Origin: a virus
Length of the DNA stretch: 64,000 bases
IMG/VR virus record: IMGVR_UViG_3300019124_000038
Span: 82,500 to 146,499 of that record
Direction: 5' to 3' (one strand)
Shown: positions 17,610 to 34,547 of the stretch, in pieces
Layout of the letters: the number at the start of each line of letters is the position of its first letter
Position numbering within the stretch: position 1 is the stretch's first letter
Position numbers and translations under genes: made by a program
The notes under the pieces: model-generated
What the model saw: the letters and a program-made list of their open reading frames with translations, nothing else
The model's database searches: none
Told to the model about the DNA's origin: nothing

Positions 17610-18555
17610 CCATTTTCTTGATGAGTATGCCGCTACAGAACGTTTGATTCGTGAATGGGAGAAATACGGTAGGCTGGTGATCGCGTATGACTTCGACAAC
17701 ACAGTTTACGACTATCACGGCGGCGGCTACTCTTACTCGATGGTAATTGATCTCCTCCGTAAGTGCAAGGAAGTTGGAGCTTACTTCATATGCTTCACGG
17801 CGCGGGAAAATGACGAGCTAGACTTTGTGTGGAAGTATCTGAAAGACAACAATATTCCTGTGGACAAGCTCAATGATAATCCTGACTTCCTACCCTTTAA
17901 CGGTCGAAAAATCTACTACAATATCCTCTTGGATGATCGGGCTGGACTCGCTCAGGCATACAACATGCTGAGTTACGCCGCGACACACATGAAGGCAAAA
18001 AGGAGCGTGAAGCGATTGGGTGAAGAATGGCGACCAATAGAAGGGTACGAAGGTCTATACGAAGTATCCAATCTTGGTCGTGTAAAATCACTTGCAAGAA
18101 CAATAATTCGTAGTGATGGTCGTAGGTGCGTGGTAACAGAGAAAATCTTGACCGAGCGTGTCAACGACAGAGGATACATAGAGATCAAGCTGTCAAGGTT
18201 AGGGTCTAGCACCTACAAGAAACTACACAGAATCGTGGCTACGGCATTCTTGGACAATCCCGAAAACAAGCCCGAGGTCAATCACAAAGATGGCAACAAG
18301 AAGAACAACCAAGCTGAGAACCTTGAATGGGCTACGCACTCCGAGAATATGCAACACGCTTTCGCAAATGGACTACATTCCCACCAAGGAGATCGGAGTT
18401 CGACCAAGTTACTAACCGAGTCAGATGTTCTGTCAATACGGGAGCGTCAGGCGAACGGTGAAAAGCGCGGCGAAGTGTATGCCGACTACGCTGAAGTGAT
18501 TTCCATTCATGGTTTTAAAGCAATCTGGTATCGCCATACTTGGAAGCATATCTGA
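17602..18555 (+). CDS. HAD-like phosphatase fused in frame to NUMOD4-HNH endonuclease
   Basis: YDFDNT..TAR..K..LLDD, then WRPIEGYEGLYEVSNLGRVKS and HRIVA..VNHKDGNKKNN..NLEW. Confidence 0.85.
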   Translation: MLDHFLDEYAATERLIREWEKYGRLVIAYDFDNTVYDYHGGGYSYSMVIDLLRKCKEVGAYFICFTARENDELDFVWKYLKDNNIPVDKLNDNPDFLPFNGRKIYYNILLDDRAGLAQAYNMLSYAATHMKAKRSVKRLGEEWRPIEGYEGLYEVSNLGRVKSLARTIIRSDGRRCVVTEKILTERVNDRGYIEIKLSRLGSSTYKKLHRIVATAFLDNPENKPEVNHKDGNKKNNQAENLEWATHSENMQHAFANGLHSHQGDRSSTKLLTESDVLSIRERQANGEKRGEVYADYAEVISIHGFKAIWYRHTWKHI

Positions 18556-18568
18556 GGAGGTAATGAAC

Positions 18569-20092
18569 ATGGGTAAATTCGTAACTCCCGCTTCATTGTT
18601 GTGCGATTTTTATAAGGTAAACCACCGTCAGCAATATCCGAAAGGCACTACTCGTGTGTACTCGAACTGGACAGGGCGGCTTTCCCGCATTGAAGGCGTA
18701 GACAAGGTAGTGATGTTCGGTCTGCAAGCCTTCATCAAGGAATACCTGATCGACTACTTCAATGAACACTTCTTCGCTCGTCCGCACATTGAAGTAGTAT
18801 ATGAGTATTATCGTTACATGCGGTTCACTTTAGGTATTGAGAATCCCGATGCTTCCCATATTGCCGCCTTGCATGACCTCGGCTATCTGCCGCTCCGTAT
18901 TGAGGCGGTGAAAGAAGGTACGCTCGTACCGATCAAGGTTCCGATGCTTACTATCGAGAATACTCATGACGACTTCTTTTGGCTGACGAATTACGTTGAA
19001 ACCCTGCTGTCGTCTGAAATCTGGCAACCGATGACCATTGCGACCATTGCCCTGCAATATCGCAAACTGTTGGAAGACTATGCGGAGCAAACTGGTGCGG
19101 ATAAGTCTGCTGTTATCTTTCAAGGTCACGACTTCTCCATGCGCGGCATGGGCGGTCTGAAAGTGGCGGAACACGCAAATGCAGGTCACTTGCTCTCCTT
19201 TGTGGGAACCGATACTGTTCCTGCTATCGCCCATATGGAATCGTATTACAATGCTAACATTGAGACCGAGATGGTTGGCACTTCCATTCCTGCTACTGAG
19301 CATTCTGTTATGTGCGCTGGCGGGCGGGAGAACGAAGGGGAGACCATTCGCCGCCTGATCGAAGATGTATACCCGAAAGGCTTTGTGTCTATTGTCTCTG
19401 ACACTTGGGACTTGTGGAATGCAATCGACGTTCACTATCGTGGTCTTAAAGATAAAATCATGTCCCGTGACGGTCGAGTAGTTATTCGTCCTGATTCTGG
19501 CGACCCCGTGAAGATTCTGGTAGGCGACCCCGAAGCTACCGACTATCGTGCACGTAAAGGTGTCATTGAACTCCTGTGGGATATCTTCGGCGGCACGGTC
19601 ACTGAGAAGGGCTACAAGCAACTTGACTCGCATATCGGCGTAATCTACGGAGATGCGATCAGCCTTGACCGTGCAAAGCGTATCCTCGAAGGTCTGAAAT
19701 TTAAGGGGTTCGCATCTACCAACATCGTGTTTGGCATCGGTTCCTTTACCTACCAGTATCAAACTCGTGATACCTTCGGTTTTGCCCTGAAAGCTACTTA
19801 TGTAAAGATTGATGGCGAAGAACATTTCATCATGAAAAACCCAATCACCGACTCTGGCTTCAAGAAATCGGCAACTGGCAAGCTGGCGGTCTGCAAGTCT
19901 CACTTTAATCCGCATAATGGTCGTATAACTTCAAAGCCTGAGATCATTCTGATTGACAGCCTAACAGAAGAAGAGCTTATGAATATCAACTACAACGATC
20001 ACAATATGCTCGAAGATGTGTTCGTGGACGGCAAGCTGGTGCGCGATCAGTCCCTCGCAGAAATCCGCGCTTTGCTGGAGTCGCAACTATAA
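18569..20092 (+). CDS. nadV: Nicotinamide phosphoribosyltransferase-like (NAMPT; candidate Namat)
   Basis: DFYK, HDFSMRG, PATEHSVM, SIVSDTWD, IRPDSGDP, YGDAI, GIGS. Confidence 0.93.
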   Translation: MGKFVTPASLLCDFYKVNHRQQYPKGTTRVYSNWTGRLSRIEGVDKVVMFGLQAFIKEYLIDYFNEHFFARPHIEVVYEYYRYMRFTLGIENPDASHIAALHDLGYLPLRIEAVKEGTLVPIKVPMLTIENTHDDFFWLTNYVETLLSSEIWQPMTIATIALQYRKLLEDYAEQTGADKSAVIFQGHDFSMRGMGGLKVAEHANAGHLLSFVGTDTVPAIAHMESYYNANIETEMVGTSIPATEHSVMCAGGRENEGETIRRLIEDVYPKGFVSIVSDTWDLWNAIDVHYRGLKDKIMSRDGRVVIRPDSGDPVKILVGDPEATDYRARKGVIELLWDIFGGTVTEKGYKQLDSHIGVIYGDAISLDRAKRILEGLKFKGFASTNIVFGIGSFTYQYQTRDTFGFALKATYVKIDGEEHFIMKNPITDSGFKKSATGKLAVCKSHFNPHNGRITSKPEIILIDSLTEEELMNINYNDHNMLEDVFVDGKLVRDQSLAEIRALLESQL

Positions 20093-20108
20093 TAAGGAGG
20101 TATGATCT

Positions 20109-20264
20109 ATGACAAAAGAAGAAGTAATCGAAAAGCTGGAGCGCGAAAAGGAGTGCTATCGCGATTGCCGTCACAACGCTCATGACGAAGAAGAGAAGAA
20201 CTGGTACGATGGCGCGATTGAAGCAACCGTCATTGCAATTGGTCTTATCAAGCAAATCGACTAG
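20109..20264 (+). CDS. Small hypothetical protein
   Basis: SD AAGGAGG, 51 aa. Confidence 0.55.
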   Translation: MTKEEVIEKLEREKECYRDCRHNAHDEEEKNWYDGAIEATVIAIGLIKQID

Positions 20265-20332
20265 GGCATAATTCCTCCTCTGTCGCGAAGTCTCTGTAAG
20301 AGAGATAGAACGACAAAGGAGGATTCCCCCTA

Positions 20333-20587
20333 ATGAAGAATCAATTCAAGAAATTCGGGTACGTCACCCTGCGGAAGAATGGTGTGGACGCTGGAACATA
20401 CAAGATCGACCAGATGGTTGCTAACGAAATCACTCTGGAGGATTGCCTGTATGTCTTCCGTCAAGTCGATGGGGTCTGCGTAACTGACGCAACAGTAACA
20501 ATCGTGCCAGCCGCTTATGTCGGCGAGGGCAACATCAAGGAAGTAAAAGATCAGAGCGGAACACCACGCGCTATCTTCTTCTCCTAA
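20333..20587 (+). CDS. Hypothetical protein
   Basis: SD AAGGAGG, 84 aa. Confidence 0.7.
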   Translation: MKNQFKKFGYVTLRKNGVDAGTYKIDQMVANEITLEDCLYVFRQVDGVCVTDATVTIVPAAYVGEGNIKEVKDQSGTPRAIFFS

Positions 20588-20593
20588 GAAAAG

Positions 20594-20625
20594 AGGGTCA
20601 CGGCAAACGCCGTGATCTTTTTTTT
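20594..20625 (+). terminator. Intrinsic terminator
   Basis: AGGGTCACGGC-AAAC-GCCGTGATCTT plus T tract. Confidence 0.85.
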
Positions 20626-20635
20626 ATTTGAACAG

Positions 20636-20664
20636 GCATCAAAGTGGGCATATGCCCATAGGAT
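20636..20664 (+). promoter_or_regulatory. Possible sporulation-sigma (sigmaE-like) promoter overlapping a 14-bp perfect palindrome
   Basis: GCATCA-15-CATAGGAT; TGGGCATATGCCCA at 20645-20658. Confidence 0.4.
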
Positions 20665-20718
20665 GTTAGCACGAAGCAGTTATTAACTCTTCGAAAAACT
20701 TATGAAGGGGTTGAACAC

Positions 20719-21723
20719 ATGAGCAAAGTGTATGTTGGCTATGACAATGGCAACGGCAACCAAGACGTGTGCTCGAATCACCATAAGGAAGTGATCGACT
20801 TTCCCTCTGTGACGGGTGAAATCGACGTACCGCGCCCTATCGAGGGAGACCCCGATAAAAAGCTCCAGCACATGACAGTGAAGAAAGGAATGAAGCATAT
20901 CGGTGTTGGAGAGTGCGCCATCAACCACGCAAAGCTCCGTAACCATGACGTAGCAGATGATAAGTATACTACCAAGCAGTCTATTCTACTCGCCCATACT
21001 GCTGTTTCCTTGGTGGCTCCTGAAGGGTTTTCTACTGTCAAGATGGTTCTCGGATTGCCGTACTACAAGATGAACGAAGGTAAGCATATCGCCGACAGCT
21101 ACAAGGGCATGGTACATGGCTTGGAGATCGGATTCTACGGGAAGTACACGCCGCCGAAAACCATCAATATCGAAGACGTAGAACCCGTTCCGCAACATTA
21201 CGGTGCAATGTTCGATCTCACGCTCGATGACAACGGCGAGATTGCCAATAAAGACCTCGTTCTTGGCTACCTCGCGATCTATGACATTGGATACAAAACA
21301 AATATGGGCGCAGTCTTCCACCGATTTAATCCCGTAAGTCGTCACAGCATCCACAGCAAGAACGGGATGCACGTCGCGTTCGATCAGATCGCCCGCAAGA
21401 TCGGTCAATTCTTTAACGGCTTGGAAGTGAAGGCATACGACATTCCAAGCATCATCCGTGGCGGTGGGAAGGTCAAGGGGCATGATGTAACACCGATCAT
21501 CAACGAAGGTCTCTATGATCTCGCCGTTACCATCGTCAACGAGATCAAGGCACGATGGGGTGACGCATGGGAGATTACTCAGATGGCGTTCACGGGCGGC
21601 GGAGCAGTACTTCTAAAACCGTATCTGGAGCAAGCGTTCCAAGATGCAAAGTACGGCGATAACAAGCAGAACGCAAATGGTCTCCGCAAGTTCGCAGTTC
21701 GGAAGTGGGGTCGGACGGCGTGA
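20719..21723 (+). CDS. parM: ParM/StbA-family actin-like ATPase
   Basis: GYDNGNG phosphate-1, LGLP, YDIGYKT phosphate-2, FTGGGA. Confidence 0.88.
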   Translation: MSKVYVGYDNGNGNQDVCSNHHKEVIDFPSVTGEIDVPRPIEGDPDKKLQHMTVKKGMKHIGVGECAINHAKLRNHDVADDKYTTKQSILLAHTAVSLVAPEGFSTVKMVLGLPYYKMNEGKHIADSYKGMVHGLEIGFYGKYTPPKTINIEDVEPVPQHYGAMFDLTLDDNGEIANKDLVLGYLAIYDIGYKTNMGAVFHRFNPVSRHSIHSKNGMHVAFDQIARKIGQFFNGLEVKAYDIPSIIRGGGKVKGHDVTPIINEGLYDLAVTIVNEIKARWGDAWEITQMAFTGGGAVLLKPYLEQAFQDAKYGDNKQNANGLRKFAVRKWGRTA

Positions 21724-22055
21724 TCTTCTCGTTCAGCGTTCCCGAAGATAACCCGCGCTTCAAGGCTCTGATCCACTGGTACAATAGCTACAACGGTGAC
21801 AAAGCGAAGAGGATGGAGCGTAGCCGTGACTTCCGCGAAATGTTTTTGCAATTGATTGGCGGCGGGGATGCTAATACAGAAGTAGAAAAATCGACCATAA
21901 TAGAAGATACTATCTCTGTTGTCGCGCCGCAACCGCAACGGCAGATTGTGAAAGACATATCTCTGCAACCTGTTAATCTTGTCGTTACCGCATCGCCAGT
22001 ACAAGAGGTAGACCTTGATAGTGAGCTTGATAATCTAAACTTTGGAGGCTTATAG
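21720..22055 (+). CDS. Putative ParR-like adaptor/DNA-binding protein
   Basis: Overlaps parM stop; N-terminal strand-helix-helix pattern, acidic flexible C-terminus. Confidence 0.5.
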   Translation: MIFSFSVPEDNPRFKALIHWYNSYNGDKAKRMERSRDFREMFLQLIGGGDANTEVEKSTIIEDTISVVAPQPQRQIVKDISLQPVNLVVTASPVQEVDLDSELDNLNFGGL

Positions 22056-22057
22056 GG

Positions 22058-22498
22058 ATGAAGAAGGCAAAACTCTGTGCCGCTGTTATGCTTTTAACAT
22101 CAACAATCTTCGCGGGTGGGTGTAAAGAAAACAAACTACTCTCAGAGCAAGAGTATATCGACTACACCCGTGGTCAACTGACTAAATTCATGGAGATCGT
22201 GCAGAATGAAAACATCAACATTGACGACTATCGTACAGTCAAGAAATCTGTAGAAAATCAGAAGCGCAAGCTGGAGAAAATTGAGAGCACTCTGAAGGAC
22301 GTACAGCCACCACCGAACTACGTTGGCGAACACCGTGAGATGTTGGAAGTTCTGCATTTCTTCATTAGGCGCGATGACGAACTATTGGAGTACGCAAAGA
22401 CGGGGAGTGGCTACGATCTGAAACAGGCTAACGATTACTTCCAAGTTGCCATCAACAATATGGAAGATGCACCTACTTTCTTTACCAAAAACGACTAG
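22058..22498 (+). CDS. Lipoprotein
   Basis: Signal peptide ending FAGGC. Confidence 0.75.
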   Translation: MKKAKLCAAVMLLTSTIFAGGCKENKLLSEQEYIDYTRGQLTKFMEIVQNENINIDDYRTVKKSVENQKRKLEKIESTLKDVQPPPNYVGEHREMLEVLHFFIRRDDELLEYAKTGSGYDLKQANDYFQVAINNMEDAPTFFTKND

Positions 22499-22512
22499 GA
22501 GGAGGATTCCAT

Positions 22513-22980
22513 ATGAAAATCAACGTTGGGCATCGTGAGTACGGCTATCGTGATCTGAACTGCAACATCAATGTCAATGAAGTTCTGCAAGAAATCATTG
22601 ACAACCAAGACATGCAAATCAACAATTCCTGCAATGATCGCAAATTCGACGCTATCGGAAAAGTCTCTGCCGCTGGTGCTGGCTTCACCGCATTCCTTAC
22701 GATGGTTCCGCATCAAGCAATGGCGGCTGGTATCAACCTCACCCCTATCGAACGTGTTGCAAATGAGGGCTACTGGACGATTACTAAGATCGGTGTTCTG
22801 CTGGCTACTCCCTTTCTCGCATGGGGTATTCTCTCTCTTATCACATCTGGCGGCAATCCCGCAGGTCGCACCAAGGCAAAGGTAGTGGGGTTGGGAGTAG
22901 GTGGTGGCATCTTGGGTCTGGCGGCAACTCCGTGGGCTGTGAACAGCGCATGGAGCTATCTGCAAACGGCATTCCATTGA
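22513..22980 (+). CDS. VirB2/TrbC-like pilin-type membrane protein
   Basis: PHQAMA-A processing-like motif followed by two hydrophobic helices; position in T4SS cluster. Confidence 0.6.
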   Translation: MKINVGHREYGYRDLNCNINVNEVLQEIIDNQDMQINNSCNDRKFDAIGKVSAAGAGFTAFLTMVPHQAMAAGINLTPIERVANEGYWTITKIGVLLATPFLAWGILSLITSGGNPAGRTKAKVVGLGVGGGILGLAATPWAVNSAWSYLQTAFH

Positions 22981-22996
22981 TGGGAGGGATTAGGCA

Positions 22997-24130
22997 TTGA
23001 AAGTTCGCGTAGGAGGAAAAGTTGTCTATGACGACACGAAGCCCACCTTAATCGGCAAGCTCGATGAGGTGACAAAACAAGTTGAAGAAACGGTTGACAA
23101 GATGAACCGCAAGTCGCGGCGGAACAAGCTGATAAAGAAGGTAGTTGGACTATTCGGTGTCATTTCTACTCTGGCATATTCTGCGGTAGCACATGCAGAA
23201 GAAGTCGCACCGAACATAACTCAGACCCCTATCCCTGAGCAGGGGATTCCTGAGAGAATTGCAAACGTTCTGGCTGATCGACTGATCGAACACGTAACTG
23301 GGTCGATGCCACATGCTGGTGAAACCGCTTCTATTTATTGGAAGCTCAACGAGATTGCATCCAAGTCTGTCCTAACGACGCAAGACTTTTTTCAAAATCC
23401 TAGTCTGGTCGGCATGTATACAGTAGTCTCATTCACCGCAATGTCCGTAACCTCGCTTATCATGGGGAAGAAGTGTCTTGACATGATTAAAGCACACACG
23501 GTAGGCGGCAGTACGATGGGAGTATCCGAACTTATCCTCCGTTGTTTTGCTTCGGTACTTCTGACATACCTTACGCTTCCGATCATGAGCTATGGAGTGA
23601 AGTTGTCAAATGTAGTTGTGCAAACCATGATGGCAAACTTCGGAAGCGGAATGATTCCTATGGGGGTACATGGTGTTGGCTCATTCGCCACAACGTTTAT
23701 CGGGGAGTTCTTCTGGATTATCGGCTTCTTCCTTCTTATGGCTCTCCTGATGATTCAATACTGGGTACGCCAGATCAACCTCATTGTTCTCGGAATATTC
23801 TCTCCGTTCGCTACAACCTCTTGGATTGTGGATGGAGGAGCAATGATTGGAACTCTGGTTCAGGAAACCATTGTTCATCTGACTACGCCGCTGGTTCAGG
23901 GCGGTGTCATGGCAATCGGCACGGCTATCGTAACCTCTATCGCCGCATCTCAGGGGGTAGACCCGATCAACGCGGTCTTCGCTAGTATCGCCACGATGTT
24001 CGTCATGCTGACCGTTCCGTCTTTCCTTCGTAAGTTTGTCACTGGCACGATTAACCCATTCAAGTGGGCACTAAATACGGCAGTAGGTATCAAGGCAATG
24101 CCAGCAAGACTTTTGGCCGTAGCTAAGTAG
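22997..24130 (+). CDS. virB6: VirB6/TrbL-like polytopic membrane protein
   Basis: Multiple TM segments; RQINLIVLGIFSPF motif. Confidence 0.7.
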   Translation: MKVRVGGKVVYDDTKPTLIGKLDEVTKQVEETVDKMNRKSRRNKLIKKVVGLFGVISTLAYSAVAHAEEVAPNITQTPIPEQGIPERIANVLADRLIEHVTGSMPHAGETASIYWKLNEIASKSVLTTQDFFQNPSLVGMYTVVSFTAMSVTSLIMGKKCLDMIKAHTVGGSTMGVSELILRCFASVLLTYLTLPIMSYGVKLSNVVVQTMMANFGSGMIPMGVHGVGSFATTFIGEFFWIIGFFLLMALLMIQYWVRQINLIVLGIFSPFATTSWIVDGGAMIGTLVQETIVHLTTPLVQGGVMAIGTAIVTSIAASQGVDPINAVFASIATMFVMLTVPSFLRKFVTGTINPFKWALNTAVGIKAMPARLLAVAK

Positions 24131-24137
24131 AAGGGAG

Positions 24138-24488
24138 ATGGTTAGAGTGCAAGATTATATCATTCCGCGCAACATCAATGTGAAAGAAGGTCTGATCGCA
24201 AATCTTAACGCAAAACAAGTCCTGTTTCTCATCATCGGCGGTGCGACTTCCGTAGGAATCTGGAAGCTAGGTTCTACTTGGGATGTTGCAGTTCGAGTAT
24301 CGGCAAGCATCTTCGCAGTAGGCGGCGCACTGTTTTTCACTATCTACAAGGTAGAAGGACAGACATTAGATCAATATACGTGGAATATGATGAAGTATCC
24401 ATTCCGTACTAAGAACTATGATGGAGGTGTAGAAGAATATGTTCACCAGCAAACGCCAAAAGTATGCATTAGATATGCCCTGCAATGA
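24138..24488 (+). CDS. PrgI/VirB3-like protein
   Basis: IPRNI..EGLIANLNAKQ, two TMs, immediately upstream of VirB4. Confidence 0.75.
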   Translation: MVRVQDYIIPRNINVKEGLIANLNAKQVLFLIIGGATSVGIWKLGSTWDVAVRVSASIFAVGGALFFTIYKVEGQTLDQYTWNMMKYPFRTKNYDGGVEEYVHQQTPKVCIRYALQ

Positions 24489-26235
24489 TCTTGCTCAATA
24501 CAAAAAACATTGGTACATGGTACTGCGTGTAGGGTCGGTAGACCTTGACATGTGCGACAAAGACGACCAAGAAGCTATCCTCATGACGTTTCAGCAGATC
24601 ATTAATTCGTTCCACGCGCCGATTCAACACATTCAGAAGCGTGTACCTCTCGACTTCTCTGAGCACATCCTTCGCGTTGACAAAATGATCGGCTGTATCG
24701 ACAATGAAAACGTTAAGAAGTACGGGGAGTCCTATGTCACATATCTGGATGAGGCCGCCCAAGGCAAACTCACTACCGTCAACTATTTGATCTTAAAAAC
24801 AGATCGTTATTGCTCCTATGAGGCCGCCCAGTCTACGCTCGGTTCTTTGCGCGATCAGATCATGCGGGCTGTAGAACCGCTGAGCATTGACGTACATCAA
24901 CTGACTGGCAGAGAGTTAGATGACTTCTATGCTTTCCCGTTCAAGGTGCAAGAACGCAAGGACTACGTGATCTATGGCAATGAATACCGTCGCACGTATA
25001 TTGTGACCGACTATCCGAGAGTTGCCTATCCAAACTGGATGAAGCCACTCACTGAGTTTCCGTTCCCTGTAGAAATTAGCCAGCACATCCATCCGTACTC
25101 TCGGGACATGATAATCCGCAGTCTCGAAGTCTCTATCGCAAAGTTGCAGTCCTCAAAGGAGATGGTGATGAGAAGCGGCATCAGCGCGGGGAGCGAGATT
25201 CAAGCGAAGATCGACGACGCGAAAGACCTCCTTAAACGCATCTCCAGTGGTCAAGACAGTATCTTCCAGTATGGAATGTGCGTGACGGTAGTATCTGATA
25301 GCTTGGATGAGTTGGAACGTAATAGCTATGCTATCGAAGGTGCTCTCCGTAGCATACAGGTCAGCTTTCGACGAGCGATCTACCAGATGAACAAGGCTCT
25401 GACTTCAACCCTGCCGCTCTGCTGGAACCAGCTTAATGAATGGTATACCCTCGACTCTCGCGCTCTGTCTACCATGCTTCTGTGGACAAATGCTAACTAT
25501 TCCAGCACAGGCGGCATTCTTTATGGAATCAACGAACAAACGAATGCTCTCATCACATTCGACCGCTTCGAGATGCCGAACCCAAACGCCGTTATTATTG
25601 GTAGCTCTGGATATGGCAAAAGCATGACTGCCAAGACAGTAGAGATCAGCCGCAATCTTGTTACTGGCAGTCAGGTCATTGTCCTCGACTGGAGCGGCGA
25701 GTATCGTCAACTATGCGATCTTATGGGCGGACAATACGTGGAAAGAGATCAGGAACCAGACTGGAGCCGCCACCTCATCATCTTCTACGGCGATAATGTC
25801 AACCAGCTTCGCAAGGTTTGGCAGTTCATTCAAGCCGCACCGATGAAATGCCGCTCTTTGATCGTTGAAGAGTTTCACAACATCCTGCGTGAAGACCCGA
25901 ATCTTATCCTCACCATCATGCAAGAAATTCGTAAACGATTCTGCGCCCCGACGCTCATCACTCAGAACGTGCAGGAGTTCATGAGATCGCCAGAAGGCAA
26001 GATGATTCTCGATCTCTGCTCTATCAAGCTCCTGCTTCATCTCGGAGACAATGATGTAAAGGAAGCGGCAGAACTCTTCCATCTGACCAAGCAAGAGAAA
26101 ATGTACCTCCGTACCTGCGGCAAAGGACGTGGCTACATTTACGCCCCGAACTTCAAGACAAAGATCAAGATTGACTACTCTGATCGCGAAGAACGGCTGT
26201 TGACTACTGATCCGAGGGAGGTTGTGCTACAGTGA
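24439..26235 (+). CDS. virB4: VirB4-like conjugation ATPase
   Basis: IIGSSGYGKS, VLDWSGEY, IVEEFH, RKR..ITQN. Confidence 0.85.
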   Translation: MFTSKRQKYALDMPCNDLAQYKKHWYMVLRVGSVDLDMCDKDDQEAILMTFQQIINSFHAPIQHIQKRVPLDFSEHILRVDKMIGCIDNENVKKYGESYVTYLDEAAQGKLTTVNYLILKTDRYCSYEAAQSTLGSLRDQIMRAVEPLSIDVHQLTGRELDDFYAFPFKVQERKDYVIYGNEYRRTYIVTDYPRVAYPNWMKPLTEFPFPVEISQHIHPYSRDMIIRSLEVSIAKLQSSKEMVMRSGISAGSEIQAKIDDAKDLLKRISSGQDSIFQYGMCVTVVSDSLDELERNSYAIEGALRSIQVSFRRAIYQMNKALTSTLPLCWNQLNEWYTLDSRALSTMLLWTNANYSSTGGILYGINEQTNALITFDRFEMPNPNAVIIGSSGYGKSMTAKTVEISRNLVTGSQVIVLDWSGEYRQLCDLMGGQYVERDQEPDWSRHLIIFYGDNVNQLRKVWQFIQAAPMKCRSLIVEEFHNILREDPNLILTIMQEIRKRFCAPTLITQNVQEFMRSPEGKMILDLCSIKLLLHLGDNDVKEAAELFHLTKQEKMYLRTCGKGRGYIYAPNFKTKIKIDYSDREERLLTTDPREVVLQ

Positions 26236-28661
26236 AAGATTATACTGTACTGGAGGTCAACAACGTACCTGACGAGACCGATCTGGAGAATGCAGAACGG
26301 ATGTTGCGCTCCTTCTTTCGTACTATTGAACCCGAAGGGAAGCGGGAGAAATGGGACGATAGGGATAAAATCTCTTGGGAACTTTACGCAGAGAAGGATA
26401 AGATCGGGTTCTACGCAGTAGTTCCCCGTAGAATAGAACGTCTCATTCGTAGTCGAATCTTCGACGCTTATCCCAGTGCAGAAATCAAGTCCACTGAGTT
26501 CGACCCTGCCAAGCAGTTCACAGACAAAGCGTTCGTGGCACAGATGAGTCTGCACAAGCACTTTATGTTTGCCACTAAATCGAGCAAGGCTGGTGATGCG
26601 CCTATCAGCTCCATTCTGAACTCTATGAGTGGGCTGGAGGAAGATCAGCGGATGCTTCTGCAAATCTCTATGGTTCCGATCAATAACAAGTGGCAGGGCA
26701 AGGCGTACAAAGCATATCGTAAGATGCTATTTCAAGGCGTGAAGCCGAAGAGGGGCACAAACAATACATGGGTGCGCGGCACAGTGATTGGCGCGAAGGC
26801 TCTTATGGTTCTACTTGGTGGAGTACTCTACATGATGACTTTGGGCAATGTCAATGTGTTCGATAAGTCTCTGGAGAGTCAAAAGAACACGCCTATTGAA
26901 CGTGCAGAATTGAAGGGCACTCAGCAGAAGATCGCGCTACCCGCATTCAATGTAGCAATTCGGATAGCGGCAGAAGCAAAAGACAAGAATGTAGCATCGA
27001 CTCGATTAACCGAGCTGGCAAACTCCTTCATTGAAATGGATGCCGATAACGAATGGCGAAGAACACGGGTCAACATTCGTTCATGTTACAATCAAATGTT
27101 AGATCGTAGTGTGCCTAAGCATACGAATGATATCGTAACAACAAGTGAGCTTTCCCCGTTAGTTCGGTTGGTGAACAAACATATCGTTATTCCTGAACTG
27201 AAACACTCACTCAAAACGTATCCGTTGCCTCAAGGTCTGGAAGATGGAACGTTCTTCGCCAAACATGTTCACAATGGCGAAGAGAAGGAGTTCTACTATC
27301 CGACAGATCATGTCAGTGACTTTGTGCATCCGCTCATCATCACTGGTGCGATGGGCGCAGGAAAAACAACTCTTATCAATAACCTGATGATCTCCCGCGC
27401 TGTAGCTGGCTATGGTGTCATCATCATCGACACGCAAGGCGACCAATCTCGCGACTTTATTAAGATGCTTCCGCAGTCTGAGATGCATCGTTTAGTATGG
27501 CTCAACTTCGGAGATGTGCTGAACCCTCCGCCCATCGACTTGATGGAGTTCAATGAAGTAGCGGCAACTGCCAATCCCGTGTTCGCCAAATTCTACAAGC
27601 AGAACGCCAAGAACGAGATGATCGCTCTGTTCAAGAAGCTGTGGGGACAGAACTTTGGCCCTCAAACCGAGTATATTACTCGGCACAACATTACGGCTCA
27701 AATGGAGACAGGTGGAACCTTCCTAGAGATGTTCCGCATGTTGACCGACAAGGAGTTCCGCGAGAGCATCATCCCTGATCTTCGCTCTAAAGCTCCGCTA
27801 TCATGGAAGTTCTGGAAAACAATTGAGGAGAACTACGAGGAAAAGCAACTGTTGAAGATGTTCATGCCGTCGATCAACAAGCTCGGCGCACTCATTGAAG
27901 ACCCGATGCTTATGAACATCACGTCGCAGGGTCGTCAGACTTATAACTTCCGTCAGATGATGGATGAAGCCAAGATCGTTGTCATCACTATCCCAAAAGG
28001 CATTCTGGTAGAGAACTGGAACCTGATCGCCAGACTCATGCTGTCGAAAATCTGGCTTGCCGCCTTGTCTCGGGAAGAGATTCACAACATTAATGATCGA
28101 CTACCTTGCTTTCTTGCGGCTGACGAAGCAGACGATCTTATCAATGAGAACTTCCCGACTATGCTGTCTCAGTCCCGTAAGTTCCGTCTCGGCATTGTCA
28201 TGGGCTTCCAGTACCTCAAGCAGATCAAGCAGAATCATCCAAAGACCTACAGTGCAATGATGGGCAACATGCCACATATCGTTGCCATGAAGATCGGTAC
28301 GGAAGATCAAGAGGAGTACGGACGTATCTTCGCTCCGCATTACGCGAAGCAGGAACTCATCATGCCGTCACTCCACGGCATTGCGCGTCTCAGTGTTCGC
28401 GGCAATACGCCACATCCGTTTACCATCAAGACTGAGTTTGACCACTACGAGCGGCGGGAAGACAACATAGAAGAAGCGGCGGCGTATAGCAGAGAACACT
28501 ACACACGCACCTACGAAGAAGTCGATGCTATCGTACAGTCGAAAATTGTATCCTTGCTTGATACGTTCCAGCTCATGCAAGAAGTGGCAGATGAATACGA
28601 GCAGGAAGAAGCCGATATGTCTCTGCTCGATCAGCTTCGTGACGAAGAGGATGTGGCATAA
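26232..28661 (+). CDS. virD4: VirD4/TraG-like type IV coupling protein
   Basis: ITGAMGAGKTT, IDTQGD, ADEAD, SQSRKFRLG..FQ; N-terminal TM. Confidence 0.82.
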   Translation: MKDYTVLEVNNVPDETDLENAERMLRSFFRTIEPEGKREKWDDRDKISWELYAEKDKIGFYAVVPRRIERLIRSRIFDAYPSAEIKSTEFDPAKQFTDKAFVAQMSLHKHFMFATKSSKAGDAPISSILNSMSGLEEDQRMLLQISMVPINNKWQGKAYKAYRKMLFQGVKPKRGTNNTWVRGTVIGAKALMVLLGGVLYMMTLGNVNVFDKSLESQKNTPIERAELKGTQQKIALPAFNVAIRIAAEAKDKNVASTRLTELANSFIEMDADNEWRRTRVNIRSCYNQMLDRSVPKHTNDIVTTSELSPLVRLVNKHIVIPELKHSLKTYPLPQGLEDGTFFAKHVHNGEEKEFYYPTDHVSDFVHPLIITGAMGAGKTTLINNLMISRAVAGYGVIIIDTQGDQSRDFIKMLPQSEMHRLVWLNFGDVLNPPPIDLMEFNEVAATANPVFAKFYKQNAKNEMIALFKKLWGQNFGPQTEYITRHNITAQMETGGTFLEMFRMLTDKEFRESIIPDLRSKAPLSWKFWKTIEENYEEKQLLKMFMPSINKLGALIEDPMLMNITSQGRQTYNFRQMMDEAKIVVITIPKGILVENWNLIARLMLSKIWLAALSREEIHNINDRLPCFLAADEADDLINENFPTMLSQSRKFRLGIVMGFQYLKQIKQNHPKTYSAMMGNMPHIVAMKIGTEDQEEYGRIFAPHYAKQELIMPSLHGIARLSVRGNTPHPFTIKTEFDHYERREDNIEEAAAYSREHYTRTYEEVDAIVQSKIVSLLDTFQLMQEVADEYEQEEADMSLLDQLRDEEDVA

Positions 28662-29040
28662 AGTGAAGAATAAGACTAGTTTTGTTAAGGTCTATTTGCC
28701 AGAGGTTCAGGGGATTGCTAATCGGGTCTTGCACCATCATAACGGAACTGCTTACGTTAAACATAATAAAAAAACATATGCCGTTAAGGAAATTGATGGT
28801 GTATTTCATTTGACAGAAGAGTTCAGTCCACAGAAAAAGAAATATAGGGAGAGATTAGGAGACTTAACTGGTAAAAGGTTTGGGAGCCTAACTGTTATTA
28901 AGTTCCATAAAAGAGAACGAAAGAGCTATTGGCTGTGCGATTGTGACTGCGGTAAGCAGGGGGTAGTAGTATTAGGTTCCGCACTTGTCTCTGGAAACAC
29001 AAAAGGTTGCGGTTGCCTAAGAGGAAAGGGAGGAAATTAA
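28651..29040 (+). CDS. Protein with Cys-rich phage DNA-binding repeat (HNH-associated type)
   Basis: DLTGKRFGSLTVI..WLCDCDCG..GNTKGCGC; no nuclease domain seen. Confidence 0.6.
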   Translation: MWHKVKNKTSFVKVYLPEVQGIANRVLHHHNGTAYVKHNKKTYAVKEIDGVFHLTEEFSPQKKKYRERLGDLTGKRFGSLTVIKFHKRERKSYWLCDCDCGKQGVVVLGSALVSGNTKGCGCLRGKGGN

Positions 29041-29041
29041 A

Positions 29042-29248
29042 ATGGCAAAAGCGCATTGCCCGATATGCAAGGAAGACTGGCACTTTAACTCCCATCAGGC
29101 TGTCTTGACCAAGGAGGGAAGGGAGGACTTACAGGCGCACGGCGATCTCAATATTATTTGTGAAAACTGTAGCCACAAGGAAGAAGAGATCGAGCGGGCG
29201 GCAGAAGAGCTGGAAACACAAGGTCGTGTATTGAGCTTTGTAGAATGA
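29042..29248 (+). CDS. Small zinc-ribbon protein
   Basis: CPIC..CENC; SD GGAGG. Confidence 0.65.
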   Translation: MAKAHCPICKEDWHFNSHQAVLTKEGREDLQAHGDLNIICENCSHKEEEIERAAEELETQGRVLSFVE

Positions 29249-29260
29249 AAAGACCCCTCT

Positions 29261-30736
29261 CTAGGAGGGGGCAGGATAGTATTTATAGGCTGAATCCCAG
29301 TACCAAGTGTATCCATGATCATGGAAGAGGAACGAAGTCTCCCCATTGATGATACTGACAGCATACACCGTCAAAAATTCATCATAAAGAACTTTGGTGC
29401 TATCAATGGGATGTACTTTAAACATGGTTTTCATCCTCCTCATTGTCATGCTGTTCAGACATAAACTCCAAAGATTCACCACAGACCCCACAGTCGTAGC
29501 AGTAGACATAAAATTCATCAATCATTCCTTCGTCGTCAACATCAGTCTCTTTGTATTGACCTGAGCTAGTCAGTTGATCTTGGGGGTGCGGACATTCTCT
29601 GCGTAGGCGACTAATTTCTTGCTCGATCTCGTAGAGACTCTTTTGAATAGGCATGATCTGTCTTTCCAGTCTTTCCTTTTGTCCTTTTAGAACCTTTAAG
29701 CGTTGTGTGATTGGATGCGTCACTGGCACATCATCTCCTTTCGCTTCGTCTTTTCTTGTCAAGAACTTGCTCATGGTTAGATTCTTTTAGCTCCAGTTTC
29801 CAAGCCAACGAGCCTTCTTCCGTTAGTTCCTTGTATCTCCTATTCCAGTCTCCTTTATCGGCGAAGCTATCCATTCCTAGATCGCCTAAGCCGATAAATG
29901 TTTGGTACACGACAACGTACTTCTTTTCTTTTTGCATATTACAGCTTCTTTCCTTTGCGATATTCAAGAAACTTTTTGGCAAGAGGAGTTAGTTCATAGT
30001 CATCATGCCAAGCTCCGTCAATATAGGAAAGAAAGCCATTAGCGATAAGTGATTCTGCTTCTGATTCTCGAAAGCGTCCAGAGTCATCGAGTCGATCTTC
30101 CTCTAGGTATCTAGTCCGCCACTCAATCATGCGATTCTGGTCTACGAATTGAAGGATTTCAATTTCACGCTCGTTAAGCTGGTATTGCATGATTACACCA
30201 GAGCCGTCAGTGAGAAATCCAGTTGTCACTTTCATTAAGATCATCGCTCCTTTGAGTTTAGAGTTGCACGATACGTGTTATCGTTCGCAGTCTTCGAGCT
30301 TCAAGCTCTGCGGCATTGAAATCATAATTGCACTCTTTGTAGATGCGGTTCGCTTCGGGGTATGTGAGCTTGTATTGTGTCACCAAGAAGAAGATGTTGC
30401 GTTCGTGCTCTCGGTACTGTTCTGGTATCATAGTGGATACCTCCCTTATTTAGATTGGAAGATGGCGTTCATCCATGCTTTAACAGCTTCCCTGTCATCG
30501 GTGTCATATGGACATTTGTAGAAGTAAACTGCTTTCGTCATGTCTGCTTCTACATTAAACTGATTGAACAGGAAGTGTTCCTTATGTTCGCCCATAAGCG
30601 TACCAGAATCAACTCGCTTGCCTTCTAGGGTAACGCCAACAACCTTTACGACTCCACCGTCATGAAAAACCGCAAGAGCTTCATTGAGAGTAATCGGATA
30701 GTATTGACGCTCTTTGGGATTAAAATTTTGTCTCAT
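29261..30736 (-). other. Inverted cluster of short hypothetical CDSs (29261-29425, 29418-29774, 29731-29937, 29939-30244, 30258-30431, 30446-30736)
   Basis: Tightly packed minus-strand ORFs with SDs, downstream of a minus-strand promoter. Confidence 0.6.
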
Positions 30737-30750
30737 TTTGACATCCCCTT

Positions 30751-30795
30751 TCGTCTTATACGTGTATTATATCACAAGGAGGAGAGTGTATGCAA
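30751..30795 (-). promoter_or_regulatory. sigmaA promoter
   Basis: TTGCAT-18-TATAAT then N5-TATAAGACGA. Confidence 0.7.
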
Positions 30796-30797
30796 CC

Positions 30798-31790
30798 ATG
30801 TTTACACCTGAAAGACGTGTCATCAAGAAGCATGATAGGTCTTCAATTCGTGTTACAGTCGAATATGTTCAAGAATTAGTGCGGTCATTGCCCAATCGAG
30901 ATTTTGAAATCCTGCACTGGCTATTTAAACGCCCGTTTATGACGGGTGAGCAGATCGAGATGCTGGTATTCGGAGACCTGAAACCGTCTAGTCGCCGCGA
31001 GAAGGCGAATCAACGCATCCGCAAGCTCTACCATAGCCACTGTATCGACCGCTGGTTCCCGCCCGTTGCAGAGGGTGCAGGAAGCTCCAAACAACATCTA
31101 GTTCTTGACCGTGCGGGTCTCTTGGCTCTTGCCTTGAAGCGCGGCATCGACCCATCCGATGATCGCATAAAAAAATGGCGTAAGCGAAACCATATTCCCC
31201 AGAACTATCAGCACACTTTGAAAATTCAGGATTTCTACGGTCTGCTCCATCTGTTTAGTAGACAGCTCGAATGCGGGGAGATCATTCGGTGGGAGTGGGA
31301 AGACAAAGCGAAGATTAAATTTGCCATGCGGGAGGATGGAAGAAATCGCAACGTAGAGATCAAGCCAGATGCGTTCTGCATCTATAAGTACAACACGCAG
31401 GGCGGGTTCAAGATGTTTTACCTCGAAGCTGATAACGCAACAGAAGACATGGATGTGTTAGAGACAAAGATTAGACGCTACAAGGCTATGTACGAAAGCG
31501 GGGAGTGGCGAGACAGACAGTGGGCTCGGGCAACGCAAGGAAGAATGTTCCCTGCCGTCCTCTTTCTCTTTCATGATCTAGGGCAAGCAAAAGAATTGCA
31601 TAAATTCGCCAAACGGCAGAACACGCCAGTTCGTTTCCTCTTTACCGCTTATGACCAGTTGATTCGGCAGGAGGTCAAGGAGTATCATAGTAGAGGTGGC
31701 AAGACCATGAAGGTTCCACAAGAGCAACACATTAGACTCTTTGAGCCGATCTTCTTGTCAAGTAAAGAGGAAGGAGAAGTACCACTATGA
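30798..31790 (+). CDS. Replication-relaxation (Replic_Relax) family protein, putative relaxase
   Basis: N-terminal wHTH (MTGEQI..RIRKL), HTL, IKPDA, FYLEADNATE..KIRRY. Confidence 0.8.
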   Translation: MFTPERRVIKKHDRSSIRVTVEYVQELVRSLPNRDFEILHWLFKRPFMTGEQIEMLVFGDLKPSSRREKANQRIRKLYHSHCIDRWFPPVAEGAGSSKQHLVLDRAGLLALALKRGIDPSDDRIKKWRKRNHIPQNYQHTLKIQDFYGLLHLFSRQLECGEIIRWEWEDKAKIKFAMREDGRNRNVEIKPDAFCIYKYNTQGGFKMFYLEADNATEDMDVLETKIRRYKAMYESGEWRDRQWARATQGRMFPAVLFLFHDLGQAKELHKFAKRQNTPVRFLFTAYDQLIRQEVKEYHSRGGKTMKVPQEQHIRLFEPIFLSSKEEGEVPL

Positions 31791-32044
31791 CTAAGCATCT
31801 ACGAGAAGCAGTTCGCCATCTCAAAAGGAGCGGGGTGAAAAAATATCGTATTGAAACTACAGGTAGGAGTCACCCAAAAATTGTTTTTAGCCATAATAAT
31901 ATCGAGCATGTCGTCATCATGTCGTGCTCCCCGTCCTCCCCCGTTGCACTTAATAATTTCATCAAAGATGTTGAGGGTATAATCAGCGGGAAGGAAAGGA
32001 GAAGAGGAAATGGTAGAAAACAAGGCAATCTACGAGCGCGTTAA
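31787..32044 (+). CDS. HicA-like small protein
   Basis: TGRSHPKI..SCSPS..ALNN pattern. Confidence 0.5.
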   Translation: MTKHLREAVRHLKRSGVKKYRIETTGRSHPKIVFSHNNIEHVVIMSCSPSSPVALNNFIKDVEGIISGKERRRGNGRKQGNLRAR

Positions 32045-32477
32045 GGTTAATCGAAAAGCGGTACGTGCGGTGATGGGCATGGTCAAGAACACGGGATACT
32101 ACAAGAAGTGCAAGCCTGAACAGCAGATGCAACACTTGAGAAGGCTATGCGACTATCTCGGAGCTGTCTATAGGGTTCCTGTGCCCTCTGTAGAATTTGG
32201 CCTGTTCCCCTGCTACATGCCTAGTTTGCAGACAATCTTATTGGATAAGCCTTCGATCATCTCGTTTCTGCATGAGTATCGTCACCATCTCCAGTGCTAC
32301 GCAGGGAAGCAGTACAAGGGACTAACAATCGAACAGGATGCCCGCGCATGGTCGTTACGCATCTTCCACTTGGGGTTTCCCAAGATGTTCGAGAAAGCAG
32401 TTAAGGAGGGCAAGGTATACTTCGTCGCATGGGACACGGAGTTAGGTAAAATTGTGGATGACGCACCGTATATTTGA
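32010..32477 (+). CDS. HExxH zinc-motif protein
   Basis: FLHEYRHHLQ..EQDA. Confidence 0.65.
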   Translation: MVENKAIYERVKVNRKAVRAVMGMVKNTGYYKKCKPEQQMQHLRRLCDYLGAVYRVPVPSVEFGLFPCYMPSLQTILLDKPSIISFLHEYRHHLQCYAGKQYKGLTIEQDARAWSLRIFHLGFPKMFEKAVKEGKVYFVAWDTELGKIVDDAPYI

Positions 32478-33455: not shown

Positions 33456-34547
33456 TTATACCGCCATCCCTTCAATGAGTTTGTCAACGGCTTCTACCGC
33501 CGCTTTGAAGCGTTCTTCGTAATCGAAAGAGTCAATGTCTACTACGTTCATGCCACGCATTCTGTAGCCCTCTCGAAGCATTGTAGCAATCTCCTGACGG
33601 CGATGTGGAAGGTTGCGCTGACCGTCATCTACCCACGGTACGGTCGGGTGAAGGAGCAGAATAAGGTCAAACATTCGACAATACTCTTCGCTCCAGATCA
33701 GTGCTCCGAGTTCAGCGTCAACCTCATTAAACCACTCTACCTGAAATATAGCAGAAGTCAGGGCATCAGTGTCAGAAAAGATGAGCTGACTATCTCCGTT
33801 TTCTCCGAGAGCCTTCACCATTGCATGTTGCGTTTTCCCGAAATGAGTGATATGATCGAGCGTTACTTTGGATACGTCACCGCCCAAGTTCCCATCAATC
33901 CAGCTCCGTGCGTACTCCTGAACATTTGCACAGATCATTCCTTGCCCAGTGTAGTGCGCCGCCAGACGATTCGTGAGAGTGGATTTCCCGCACGATTCGC
34001 CGCCTACGATCAGCACCTTTTGAGTGAAGTGCTTACGAACAACAGGATGCATGTGCTTCCATTCCGCAAACGGGTTGGTACGGCAAGCAGTACCAGAGGT
34101 CGGCACATACTTGCGCTCTTGGTCAACCATGAAATGTCGGCATTTGTGGTAGTGCTCATCGGCTTCACCAAAGCCCCACATATTGCCAAGGCTCAGGTAC
34201 GGAGCGAATTTCTCACCGTATTCCTCGGAGGTAAACAGAACATCGAATGGATTATGCCAACCATTGACCTTGTAGAGTTCTTCGCTCCAGAGCTTGTAGA
34301 ACGCTTGCGGCGTTTCCATCTCCTCGGGTGTTTGCGGCAGATCAGCATGGAGATGAAGTACACGCGCCTTATCACCGTATGCTTCCTTCATCCACTTGTA
34401 GCGAAGATGACCGTCGATCTTTTCATGTGGCGTAGAACAGACGATAATAGTCAGCTTATCGCAATTTCGCAGAGCAACATCGCAGAGGAAGAAGTGCCCC
34501 AAGTGCGGCGGGTAGAACTTACCAAAGCACAATCCATGAGTCGTCAT
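33456..34547 (-). CDS. nadR: NadR-type bifunctional NMN adenylyltransferase / ribosylnicotinamide kinase
   Basis: FGKFYPPHLGH, FTSEEYG, SGT..R, GGESCGKST, EYAR, SDTD, PWVDDGQR. Confidence 0.93.
   Translation of the reverse strand: MTTHGLCFGKFYPPHLGHFFLCDVALRNCDKLTIIVCSTPHEKIDGHLRYKWMKEAYGDKARVLHLHADLPQTPEEMETPQAFYKLWSEELYKVNGWHNPFDVLFTSEEYGEKFAPYLSLGNMWGFGEADEHYHKCRHFMVDQERKYVPTSGTACRTNPFAEWKHMHPVVRKHFTQKVLIVGGESCGKSTLTNRLAAHYTGQGMICANVQEYARSWIDGNLGGDVSKVTLDHITHFGKTQHAMVKALGENGDSQLIFSDTDALTSAIFQVEWFNEVDAELGALIWSEEYCRMFDLILLLHPTVPWVDDGQRNLPHRRQEIATMLREGYRMRGMNVVDIDSFDYEERFKAAVEAVDKLIEGMAV

Follow-up and report, generated by a model that had tools for sequence, protein, structure and literature searches.

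Why should a tailed phage carry the parts of a conjugation machine? The question is raised by bases 82,500-146,499 of the IMG/VR virus record IMGVR_UViG_3300019124_000038 (146,499 bp, linear; CheckV completeness 76%). In this 64,000-nucleotide stretch, hereafter the window, a tight plus-strand operon encodes a ParM-like actin, a small adaptor, a lipoprotein, a pilin-like protein, VirB6, VirB3/PrgI, VirB4, and a second large ATPase of 809 aa, and is followed by a 2.1-kb spacer and a Replic_Relax protein (Table 1). An actin-type partition pair, parts of the type IV secretion system (T4SS) kind, and a Replic_Relax nuclease are thus combined in a single operon. The original prediction for this locus had named these genes in this order on the plus strand, and matches to Pfam, PHROG, and NCBIfam families and in BLASTP searches bear it out.

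Judged from its sequence relationships, the operon is very probably an accessory “DNA translocation operon” typical of Bacillales phages (SPO1 gp27.3-27.9; 0305phi8-36 orf200-207) in its most complete known form. Its function can be proposed with much less confidence: we tentatively rank first the delivery of phage DNA to the forespore when the host sporulates (a “virospore”).

Relatives of the operon

A “DNA translocation operon” was described in the lytic jumbo phage 0305phi8-36 by Pathria et al. in 2012, who also mentioned a SPO1 counterpart; the 0305phi8-36 set comprised a relaxase, a coupling ATPase without transmembrane (TM) segments, a VirB6 homologue, and an MreB-like protein (PMC3357382). 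Three proteins of the window operon are homologous to members of these operons. ParM matches SPO1 gp27.9 (BLASTP E = 8e-28) and 0305phi8-36 orf207 (4e-7), the 809-aa ATPase matches SPO1 gp27.4 (2e-42), phage G gp156 (5e-58), and 0305phi8-36 orf201 (4e-23), and Replic_Relax matches SPO1 gp27.3 (4e-30) and 0305phi8-36 orf200 (2e-13). These homologies mark the operon as an ancient phage property, present also in the strictly lytic SPO1 and 0305phi8-36, and not as a freshly captured conjugation system. A phage-plasmid that also conjugates, one of the explanations initially offered for this locus, is accordingly not supported in that form: its core belongs to phages of Bacillales, among them strictly lytic ones, and the supposed VirD4 is non-canonical (see below).

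The relatives form a graded series. In SPO1, ParM, its adaptor, the ATPase, and the nuclease are accompanied by the pilin-like gp29.1 and three tiny membrane peptides; 0305phi8-36 adds VirB6 to a set of this type; and phage G and the window further add PrgI and a VirB4 recognizable at the sequence level, in the same order and with 24-27% identity between the two. Phage G alone, out of 50,697 phage records, matches the window VirB4 over its full length (gp155, 24.7% identity over 95% of the length), and the window VirB6 and PrgI match phage G gp153 (E = 2e-10) and gp154 (6e-6), respectively. In GenBank, gp153-gp156 are annotated merely as “VirB-like” and “MsbA-like,” and we found no published analysis of this cassette. 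What is new here is the combination of VirB4, PrgI, and VirB6, which among cultured phages is common to phage G alone and which extends to a small clade of soil metagenome phages.

Metagenome contigs as long as 163 kb encode VirB4 homologues with 43-49% identity, and a 79% relative is present on a 178-kb contig; a peptide-pattern search of IMG/VR yielded no close VirB4 relatives. At least six metagenome contigs, independent of one another, show this gene order again, a recurrence far beyond chance. A tyrosine recombinase gene often follows Replic_Relax; the two genes are adjacent in contigs L010 and L011 and in phage Izhevsk. The Streptococcus “phage” phi-SgaBSJ31_rum, which carries a TrsE-like gene, was set aside, as it resembles a Tn5252-type conjugative element beside a prophage.

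The replicon is a tailed phage

The record is classified as a virus and encodes, upstream of the window, the large terminase subunit (TerL), portal, major head, and tail proteins. The operon is thus embedded in a phage genome, as had been surmised, and the ordinary conjugative megaplasmid that a replicon without virion genes would have indicated gives way to a tailed phage. TerL is only about 28% identical to the terminases of the 80-kb Bacillus siphophages Slash, Staley, and PBC4, and the phage thus represents a new lineage. These TerL relatives, together with a relative of the large ATPase binned in a Psychrobacillus metagenome-assembled genome (MAG), point to a host in Bacillales. The only public sequencing run found to contain the stretch is a DNA run from a biocrust metagenome, probably the source; no RNA run containing it is listed.

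Just upstream of terL, outside the window (G000:C1:13045-14584), the gene for a sigma factor of the SigB/F/G family (236 aa), with a region 4 closest to those of the sporulation factors SigG and SigF, overlaps tail to tail with the gene for a XerC/D-like tyrosine recombinase (299 aa, 254 bits).

Two ATPases of the VirB4 class

The window VirB4 is short (598 aa, against the usual 750-800 aa) and scores 217 bits against the NCBIfam VirB4-like family NF045971, below the equivalog cut-off of 325. Its Walker A motif (residue 388) reads GSSGYGKS, and the catalytic Glu478 is unchanged across 13 homologues. In a word-based search, the nearest relatives outside phages were VirB4-like ATPases of about 585-610 aa from Patescibacteria (C-terminal 43% aligned, about 35% identity); one of their genes adjoins those of a TraC-like protein and an 891-aa protein of unknown function, near dnaA and dnaN.

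The second ATPase had been taken for VirD4. It is indeed a second large ATPase after VirB4, but not a canonical coupling protein, as it has no TM domain and carries a VirB4-type N-terminal domain. This domain is followed by an FtsK/HerA-class motor with a helical insert and by an acidic C-terminal tail, and the Walker A and Walker B motifs are conserved. No clear TM helices were detected, only one weakly hydrophobic segment predicted with low confidence (residues 171-217). Sequence matches to coupling proteins were confined to Pfam TrwB_AAD_bind, over the P-loop only, and to the CD1115 family (2e-5).

AlphaFold2 modeling of the whole protein (mean predicted local distance difference test [pLDDT] score 76) and of its N-terminal 335 residues alone (pLDDT 77) allowed structural comparison. 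The modeled motor (residues 331-742, with the helical insert at 449-564) is most similar to the C-terminal domain of VirB4 (4ag5; Z-score = 26.9, root-mean-square deviation 3.1 over 341 aa), followed by TrwB (Z-score = 24.8) and DotL (Z-score = 23.9); HerA defence complexes and DndH are further structural neighbors (Z-scores 18-24). When compared with 48,161 representatives of the Protein Data Bank (PDB), the model of the N-terminal domain (residues 1-335), a soluble alpha/beta domain, matched TrwK/VirB4 of R388 (Z-score = 14.9, root-mean-square deviation 4.4 over 256 aa), with the next match at Z-score 8.5. According to these models, both domains belong to the class of VirB4 and type IV coupling proteins. 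Because both models match VirB4 and a TM anchor is missing, we assign a VirB4 architecture to this ATPase. It may nevertheless act as the coupling ATPase, given that its gene always lies beside the nuclease gene.

Homologues of this ATPase (about 23% identity over 77% of the length) are encoded next to a TrbC/VirB2-family gene on Clostridium plasmids of 150-275 kb (L020; pCLK 108421-111221), which MOB-suite classes as non-mobilizable. Other homologues are found on haloarchaeal and Streptomyces plasmids, and Bacillus plasmids carry only distant ones.

DNA as the likely substrate

The genes at either end of the operon bear on its substrate. The first two encode ParM and an adaptor that resembles ParR and Alp7R and would bind ParM. 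The acidic tail motif of the adaptor (DLDSELDNLNFGGL) is retained in SPO1 gp27.8, 0305phi8-36 orf206, and three metagenome relatives; the protein has no match in Pfam. We prefer GTG 21720 as its start over position 21705 of the open reading frame (ORF) list, as GTG 21720 overlaps the parM stop (GTGA) and agrees with the start in relatives.

At the other end, Replic_Relax consists of a winged helix-turn-helix (wHTH) domain and a PD-(D/E)XK-type core (PD190-191, E210-x-D212, K224, Y228), the motif residues of which are invariant in six phage homologues; the fold assignment is taken from PMC3424549. Pathria et al. linked orf200, the 0305phi8-36 relaxase, to CloDF13 MobC by HHpred (E = 4e-22; PMC3357382), and RefSeq labels the SPO1 homologue “replication initiation by nicking.” In the window, translation probably starts at ATG 30798, after an AAGGAGG site, rather than at TTG 30714. 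The actin-type DNA segregation pair together with the wHTH/PD-(D/E)XK nuclease (PMC3424549) argues for DNA as the substrate.

This pairing also bears on functions other than DNA export, such as protein secretion or insertion, superinfection exclusion, or uptake of the remainder of a long genome after partial injection. Protein secretion and defence also make use of T4SS-type and HerA-type ATPases, the structural neighbors of the motor include HerA defence complexes and DndH, and the operon is restricted to fairly large genomes in several lineages. Nonetheless, the constant association with a DNA-binding nuclease and a DNA-segregating actin points to DNA, and deletion of the 0305phi8-36 operon caused no growth defect in the laboratory (PMC3357382), so that the operon is not needed for genome entry. 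We consider functions of this kind improbable.

Another possible role with a DNA substrate is to maintain the phage as a plasmid prophage or in a carrier state: ParM and the adaptor would partition a circular genome, Replic_Relax would nick it to start replication, and the ATPases would act like FtsK in septum clearing or Xer dimer resolution. The co-occurrence of virion genes and a partition system in the record is a phage-plasmid trait, and ParM with a ribbon-helix-helix (RHH) adaptor is the partition system of the proven plasmid prophages IEBH, Bp8p-C, and B83 (PMC11526630). The tyrosine recombinase genes adjoining Replic_Relax in relatives, the XerC/D-like recombinase of the record, and the RefSeq label of the SPO1 nuclease fit as well. 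Such maintenance would, however, leave VirB6, PrgI, the pilin-like protein, and a bona fide VirB4 unexplained, and the core operon is present in the strictly lytic SPO1 and 0305phi8-36. Nor is there an iteron centromere beside parM: the region 20050-20760 contains no direct-repeat array, and a single palindrome (GGGCATATGCCC), a site without a repeat array nearby, was rejected as an iteron-type centromere. No plasmid replication, repressor, or lysogeny module turned up in the record, although no search was aimed at repressor or replication genes, and two narrow pattern scans of about 185,000 species-representative genomes, which provide weak evidence, found no relative of the ATPase. Overall, we regard plasmid-type maintenance as unlikely.

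A putative minimal membrane channel

The central genes encode the putative channel. The predicted topology of the pilin-like protein comprises an N-terminus in the cytoplasm, a signal-like TM segment that ends in AMAAG, and a hairpin of two TM segments with a basic loop. Of six family members, four match the T4SS_pilin family PF18895 (best E = 3.7e-6) and one matches TrbC, with the window copy itself at E = 0.074; an hhalign comparison of the family profile with the pCLK TrbC/VirB2 protein and a search of PDB sequences gave no match. An ORF on the opposite strand (22495-22977) is regarded as spurious. The lipoprotein matches only generic Bacillota lipoproteins in the ESM Atlas. The presence of VirB6, VirB3, the pilin-like protein, and VirB4 argues that the barrier is a membrane; their position beside the known core of ParM, ATPase, and nuclease makes a membrane channel the natural reading.

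Other parts of conjugation machines were reported missing from the outset, and the same is seen here. Across the 146.5-kb record, the Pfam families VirB8 and T2SSE/VirB11 have no match; Gram-positive VirB8-like families (e.g., TcpC) were not scanned. The operon proteins contain no wall hydrolase domain of the VirB1 type, and the sole lysin-like domain seen is an endolysin-like domain (residues 1660-1808) inside a 2744-aa tape-measure-like tail protein (L003:9373-17607, corresponding to G000:C1:28803-37037).

The channel genes raise the alternative of virion-independent transfer from cell to cell, in which a minimal conjugation system would pass phage DNA along chains or through biofilms, including to cells that lack the receptor. 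The genes present match the core that is conserved among conjugative T4SSs of Gram-positive bacteria (VirB4, VirB6, PrgI/VirB3, a pilin-like protein, and a second ATPase beside a relaxase-family gene). The archaeal Ced system moves DNA between cells with VirB2, VirB6, and VirB4 alone, and weak matches to CedB and CedD were found. The pairs of ATPase and TrbC/VirB2 genes on large Clostridium plasmids are in line with such transfer, and transfer in biofilms was also proposed by Pathria et al. (PMC3357382). On the other hand, the operon lacks a wall hydrolase, no VirB8-like protein or adhesin was recognized, and the core is also retained by strictly lytic phages, whose donor cells die within minutes. 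Furthermore, Replic_Relax is only a putative relaxase and no oriT is known; a search of 28600-30800 for inverted repeats as an oriT candidate revealed nothing prominent. Cell-to-cell transfer is, in our estimate, somewhat unlikely.

Host distribution and possible delivery into the forespore

Homologues of SPO1 gp27.4, the ATPase, were detected in 146 phage records (E <= 1e-3), and 145 of these phages infect endospore-formers: Bacillus (133), Geobacillus (7, including “deep-sea thermophilic phage” records), Lysinibacillus (2), and Alicyclobacillus, Brevibacillus, and Clostridium (1 each). The single odd record is labeled Microcystis. As a control, a search with SPO1 TerL (E <= 1e-60) retrieved 666 related records of the Herelleviridae type; the ATPase is encoded in none of the roughly 424 from Staphylococcus (296), Listeria (54), Enterococcus (51), and Lactobacillus (23). 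Thus, the ATPase is present in several unrelated lineages of phages that infect endospore-formers and missing from close relatives that infect non-sporulating Bacillales and Lactobacillales, a correlation that is uncorrected for phylogeny. Cell-to-cell transfer would leave the absence of the operon from the Herelleviridae of Staphylococcus, Listeria, and Enterococcus unexplained.

How virulent phages enter spores is an old question, and we know of no phage-encoded machinery for it. It is possible, although far from assured, that tailed phages of endospore-formers carry a T4SS-derived DNA injector of their own, with the window containing its complete form: two VirB4-type ATPases, VirB6, VirB3, and a pilin-like protein. 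All steps of its action are ones that we infer. Replic_Relax would bind phage DNA and nick or cut it; ParM filaments, coupled to the DNA through the adaptor, would drive it to the pole or septum; and the 809-aa ATPase would load it into a VirB4-powered channel built from VirB6, VirB3, and the pilin-like protein, so that the DNA would cross the cytoplasmic membrane without a virion. With little wall between the membranes of mother cell and forespore, such a device would need no wall hydrolase, VirB8, or adhesin. A stripped-down translocator of this kind was the other explanation initially offered for the locus, and it may hold, as it agrees with the host distribution.

Delivery into the forespore ranks first for several reasons: the host pattern, the dispensability of the 0305phi8-36 operon in lytic culture (in keeping with a need that arises in the wild), the lack of a hydrolase and of a recognized VirB8 or adhesin, the SigF/G-like sigma factor of the record, and the virospores of SPO1. 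Entrapment of SPO1 in spores has been observed experimentally, and the authors point to ParM gp27.9 (PMC12991052). The biocrust origin of the record and the ATPase relative in the Psychrobacillus MAG are further points in favor of a link to spores.

Several considerations weigh on the other side. No experiment ties the operon to spores, and a T4SS-type machine that delivers DNA into a forespore is, to our knowledge, without precedent; passage through the second (forespore) membrane is unexplained. Phages phi29 and SPP1 get trapped in spores without such an operon. A scan of the operon for sigma-70 promoter and terminator consensus sequences gave the same result as shuffled sequences, no promoter for a sporulation sigma factor could be called by eye, and Spo0A boxes (TGTCGAA) are not enriched in the record (29 seen, about 31 expected). 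The homologues on Clostridium, haloarchaeal, and Streptomyces plasmids imply that the motor is not specific to sporulation, and the host association could reflect gene pools common to Bacillus phages.

Delivery into the forespore is nevertheless a concrete hypothesis, which the restriction to spore-forming hosts suggests and for which SPO1 in B. subtilis offers an inexpensive test. Operons of this family are common among Bacillus phages and also occur in phages of the B. cereus/B. anthracis group and of industrial B. subtilis. If the injector exists, it gives these phages a second way to spread and persist, one that needs no virion; if DNA is transferred, the boundary between phages and conjugative elements is blurred, with relevance to phage persistence in soil and in fermentations.

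Features and neighborhood of the operon

Table 1. Features of the operon and adjacent DNA (window coordinates)
Feature	Position	Strand	Basis or remarks
Perfect 12-bp palindrome GGGCATATGCCC	20646-20657		In the 131-bp gap 5' of parM; sole exact copy in the window
ParM/Alp-type actin-like protein, 334 aa	20719-21723	+	Pfam ALP_N 8e-14, MreB-like_C; phrog_691 full length, 2.6e-43
Adaptor (ParR/Alp7R-like)	21720-22055	+	RHH-like N-terminus (IFSFSVPE...); acidic C-terminal tail DLDSELDNLNFGGL
Small helical lipoprotein, 146 aa	22058-22498	+	Lipobox FAGGC, kept in the homologues from L009, L010, and L011
T4SS pilin-like (VirB2-type) membrane protein	22513-22980	+	Topology and family-level Pfam matches
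VirB6/TrbL-like polytopic membrane protein, 377 aa, about 7 TM	22997-24130	+	Pfam TrbL_4 5e-9, 36.4 bits (cut-off 27)
PrgI/VirB3-like 2-TM protein, 116 aa	24138-24488	+	Pfam PrgI 3e-10, 40.9 bits (cut-off 27)
VirB4-family ATPase, 598 aa	24439-26235	+	NCBIfam NF045971 (VirB4-like, CD1110 family) 5e-64
Second ATPase, 809 aa, phrog_5156/DUF8128	26232-28661	+	phrog_5156 full length, 3e-112
Variable spacer with small ORFs on both strands	28662-30797		tblastx against L019
Replic_Relax protein, 330 aa	30798-31790	+	Pfam 2e-25; phrog_9381 full length, 1.7e-48; ATG 30798 start
Conserved 155-aa protein	32010-32477	+	Just 3' of Replic_Relax; 68% identity (tblastx) to the gene in the same position in L019

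Replic_Relax had been placed about 2 kb downstream of the operon, after an inverted gene cluster. A spacer with minus-strand ORFs is indeed present, but it is conserved only in part in the 79% relative (L019) and missing in distant ones. Two segments are kept in L019 (29042-29317 on the plus strand and 29430-29723 on the minus strand), two are specific to the window (28662-29041 and 29775-30744), and in L010 Replic_Relax directly abuts the ATPase. A 171-aa ORF with a Cys-rich C-terminus (28525-29040) lies in the window-specific insertion after the ATPase. The conserved gene downstream of Replic_Relax, the product of which has no match in Pfam, may be part of the operon.

Upstream of parM, a terminator-like hairpin (20598-20615) precedes the palindrome GGGCATATGCCC, which may be an operator. 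In three relatives, a conserved motif stands 5' of parM, TTTTATTTTATAGTCATAATTCAT in L009 and L010 and GTCATAAT in L017 (L009:5842-5911, L010:6282-6359, and L017:5512-5586). It may be a phage-specific promoter; the motif is missing from the window, where the palindrome stands instead. The genes upstream of parM in these relatives encode two GT4 glycosyltransferases, a nucleotidyltransferase, and a Metallophos protein with a sigma-70 region-4/HTH domain, and the neighbors in the window differ from these.

On both sides, the window operon is accompanied by genes for nicotinamide adenine dinucleotide (NAD) salvage: a nicotinamide phosphoribosyltransferase (NAPRTase/NAMPT_N) upstream (18509-20092, plus strand) and a nicotinamide mononucleotide adenylyltransferase/NadR-like AAA_28 protein (phrog_3462, 2e-63) downstream (33456-34547, minus strand). 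A homing endonuclease gene with NUMOD4 and HNH_3 domains (17410-18555, plus strand) is located immediately upstream of the phosphoribosyltransferase gene.

Comparison with known systems

The closest counterparts are the operons of SPO1 and 0305phi8-36 (the latter with orf200, orf201, orf203, and orf207), tailed Bacillales phages with homologous ParM, TM-less ATPase, and Replic_Relax genes in the same order, the same adaptor tail, and a pilin-like protein; 0305phi8-36 also has VirB6 in common with the window. The window differs from both in its additional sequence-level VirB4, PrgI/VirB3, and lipoprotein and in the 2-kb spacer that separates the ATPase from Replic_Relax. Where the window has channel proteins, SPO1 encodes the small membrane proteins gp27.5-27.7. 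In phage G (JN638751), gp153-gp156 correspond to VirB6, PrgI, VirB4, and the large ATPase in the same order, with the pilin-like gp150 upstream and the Replic_Relax protein gp146 nearby. Phage G is, however, a 497-kb myovirus, has no clear ParM beside the cassette, and encodes Replic_Relax upstream on the opposite strand.

Gram-positive conjugative T4SSs (pCF10 Prg/Pcf, ICEBs1 Con, and pCW3 Tcp) share with the phage operon VirB4, VirB6, PrgI/VirB3, and a second FtsK/HerA-class ATPase encoded beside a relaxase-type gene. In the phage operon, by contrast, no VirB8-like (NTF2) protein or adhesin was recognized and a VirB1-type hydrolase is lacking. The second ATPase has a VirB4-type N-terminal domain and no TM anchor of the coupling-protein type, the “relaxase” is a PD-(D/E)XK protein rather than an HUH relaxase, and the replicon is viral.

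The juxtaposition of an ATPase gene and a gene for a “relaxase” of wHTH and PD-(D/E)XK composition is also found in the MOB_C pair of CloDF13 (MobB and MobC) and in pAD1 TraX, the link to MobC being that of PMC3357382; unlike the phage ATPase, CloDF13 MobB contains TM helices. The first two genes, for an actin-like ATPase and a small RHH-type adaptor, resemble ParMRC, Alp7ARC, and the ParM systems of IEBH, Bp8p-C, and B83. Compared with ParMRC and Alp7ARC, the phage operon has one 12-bp palindrome in place of an upstream iteron centromere, and its partition pair is joined in one operon with T4SS-type genes.

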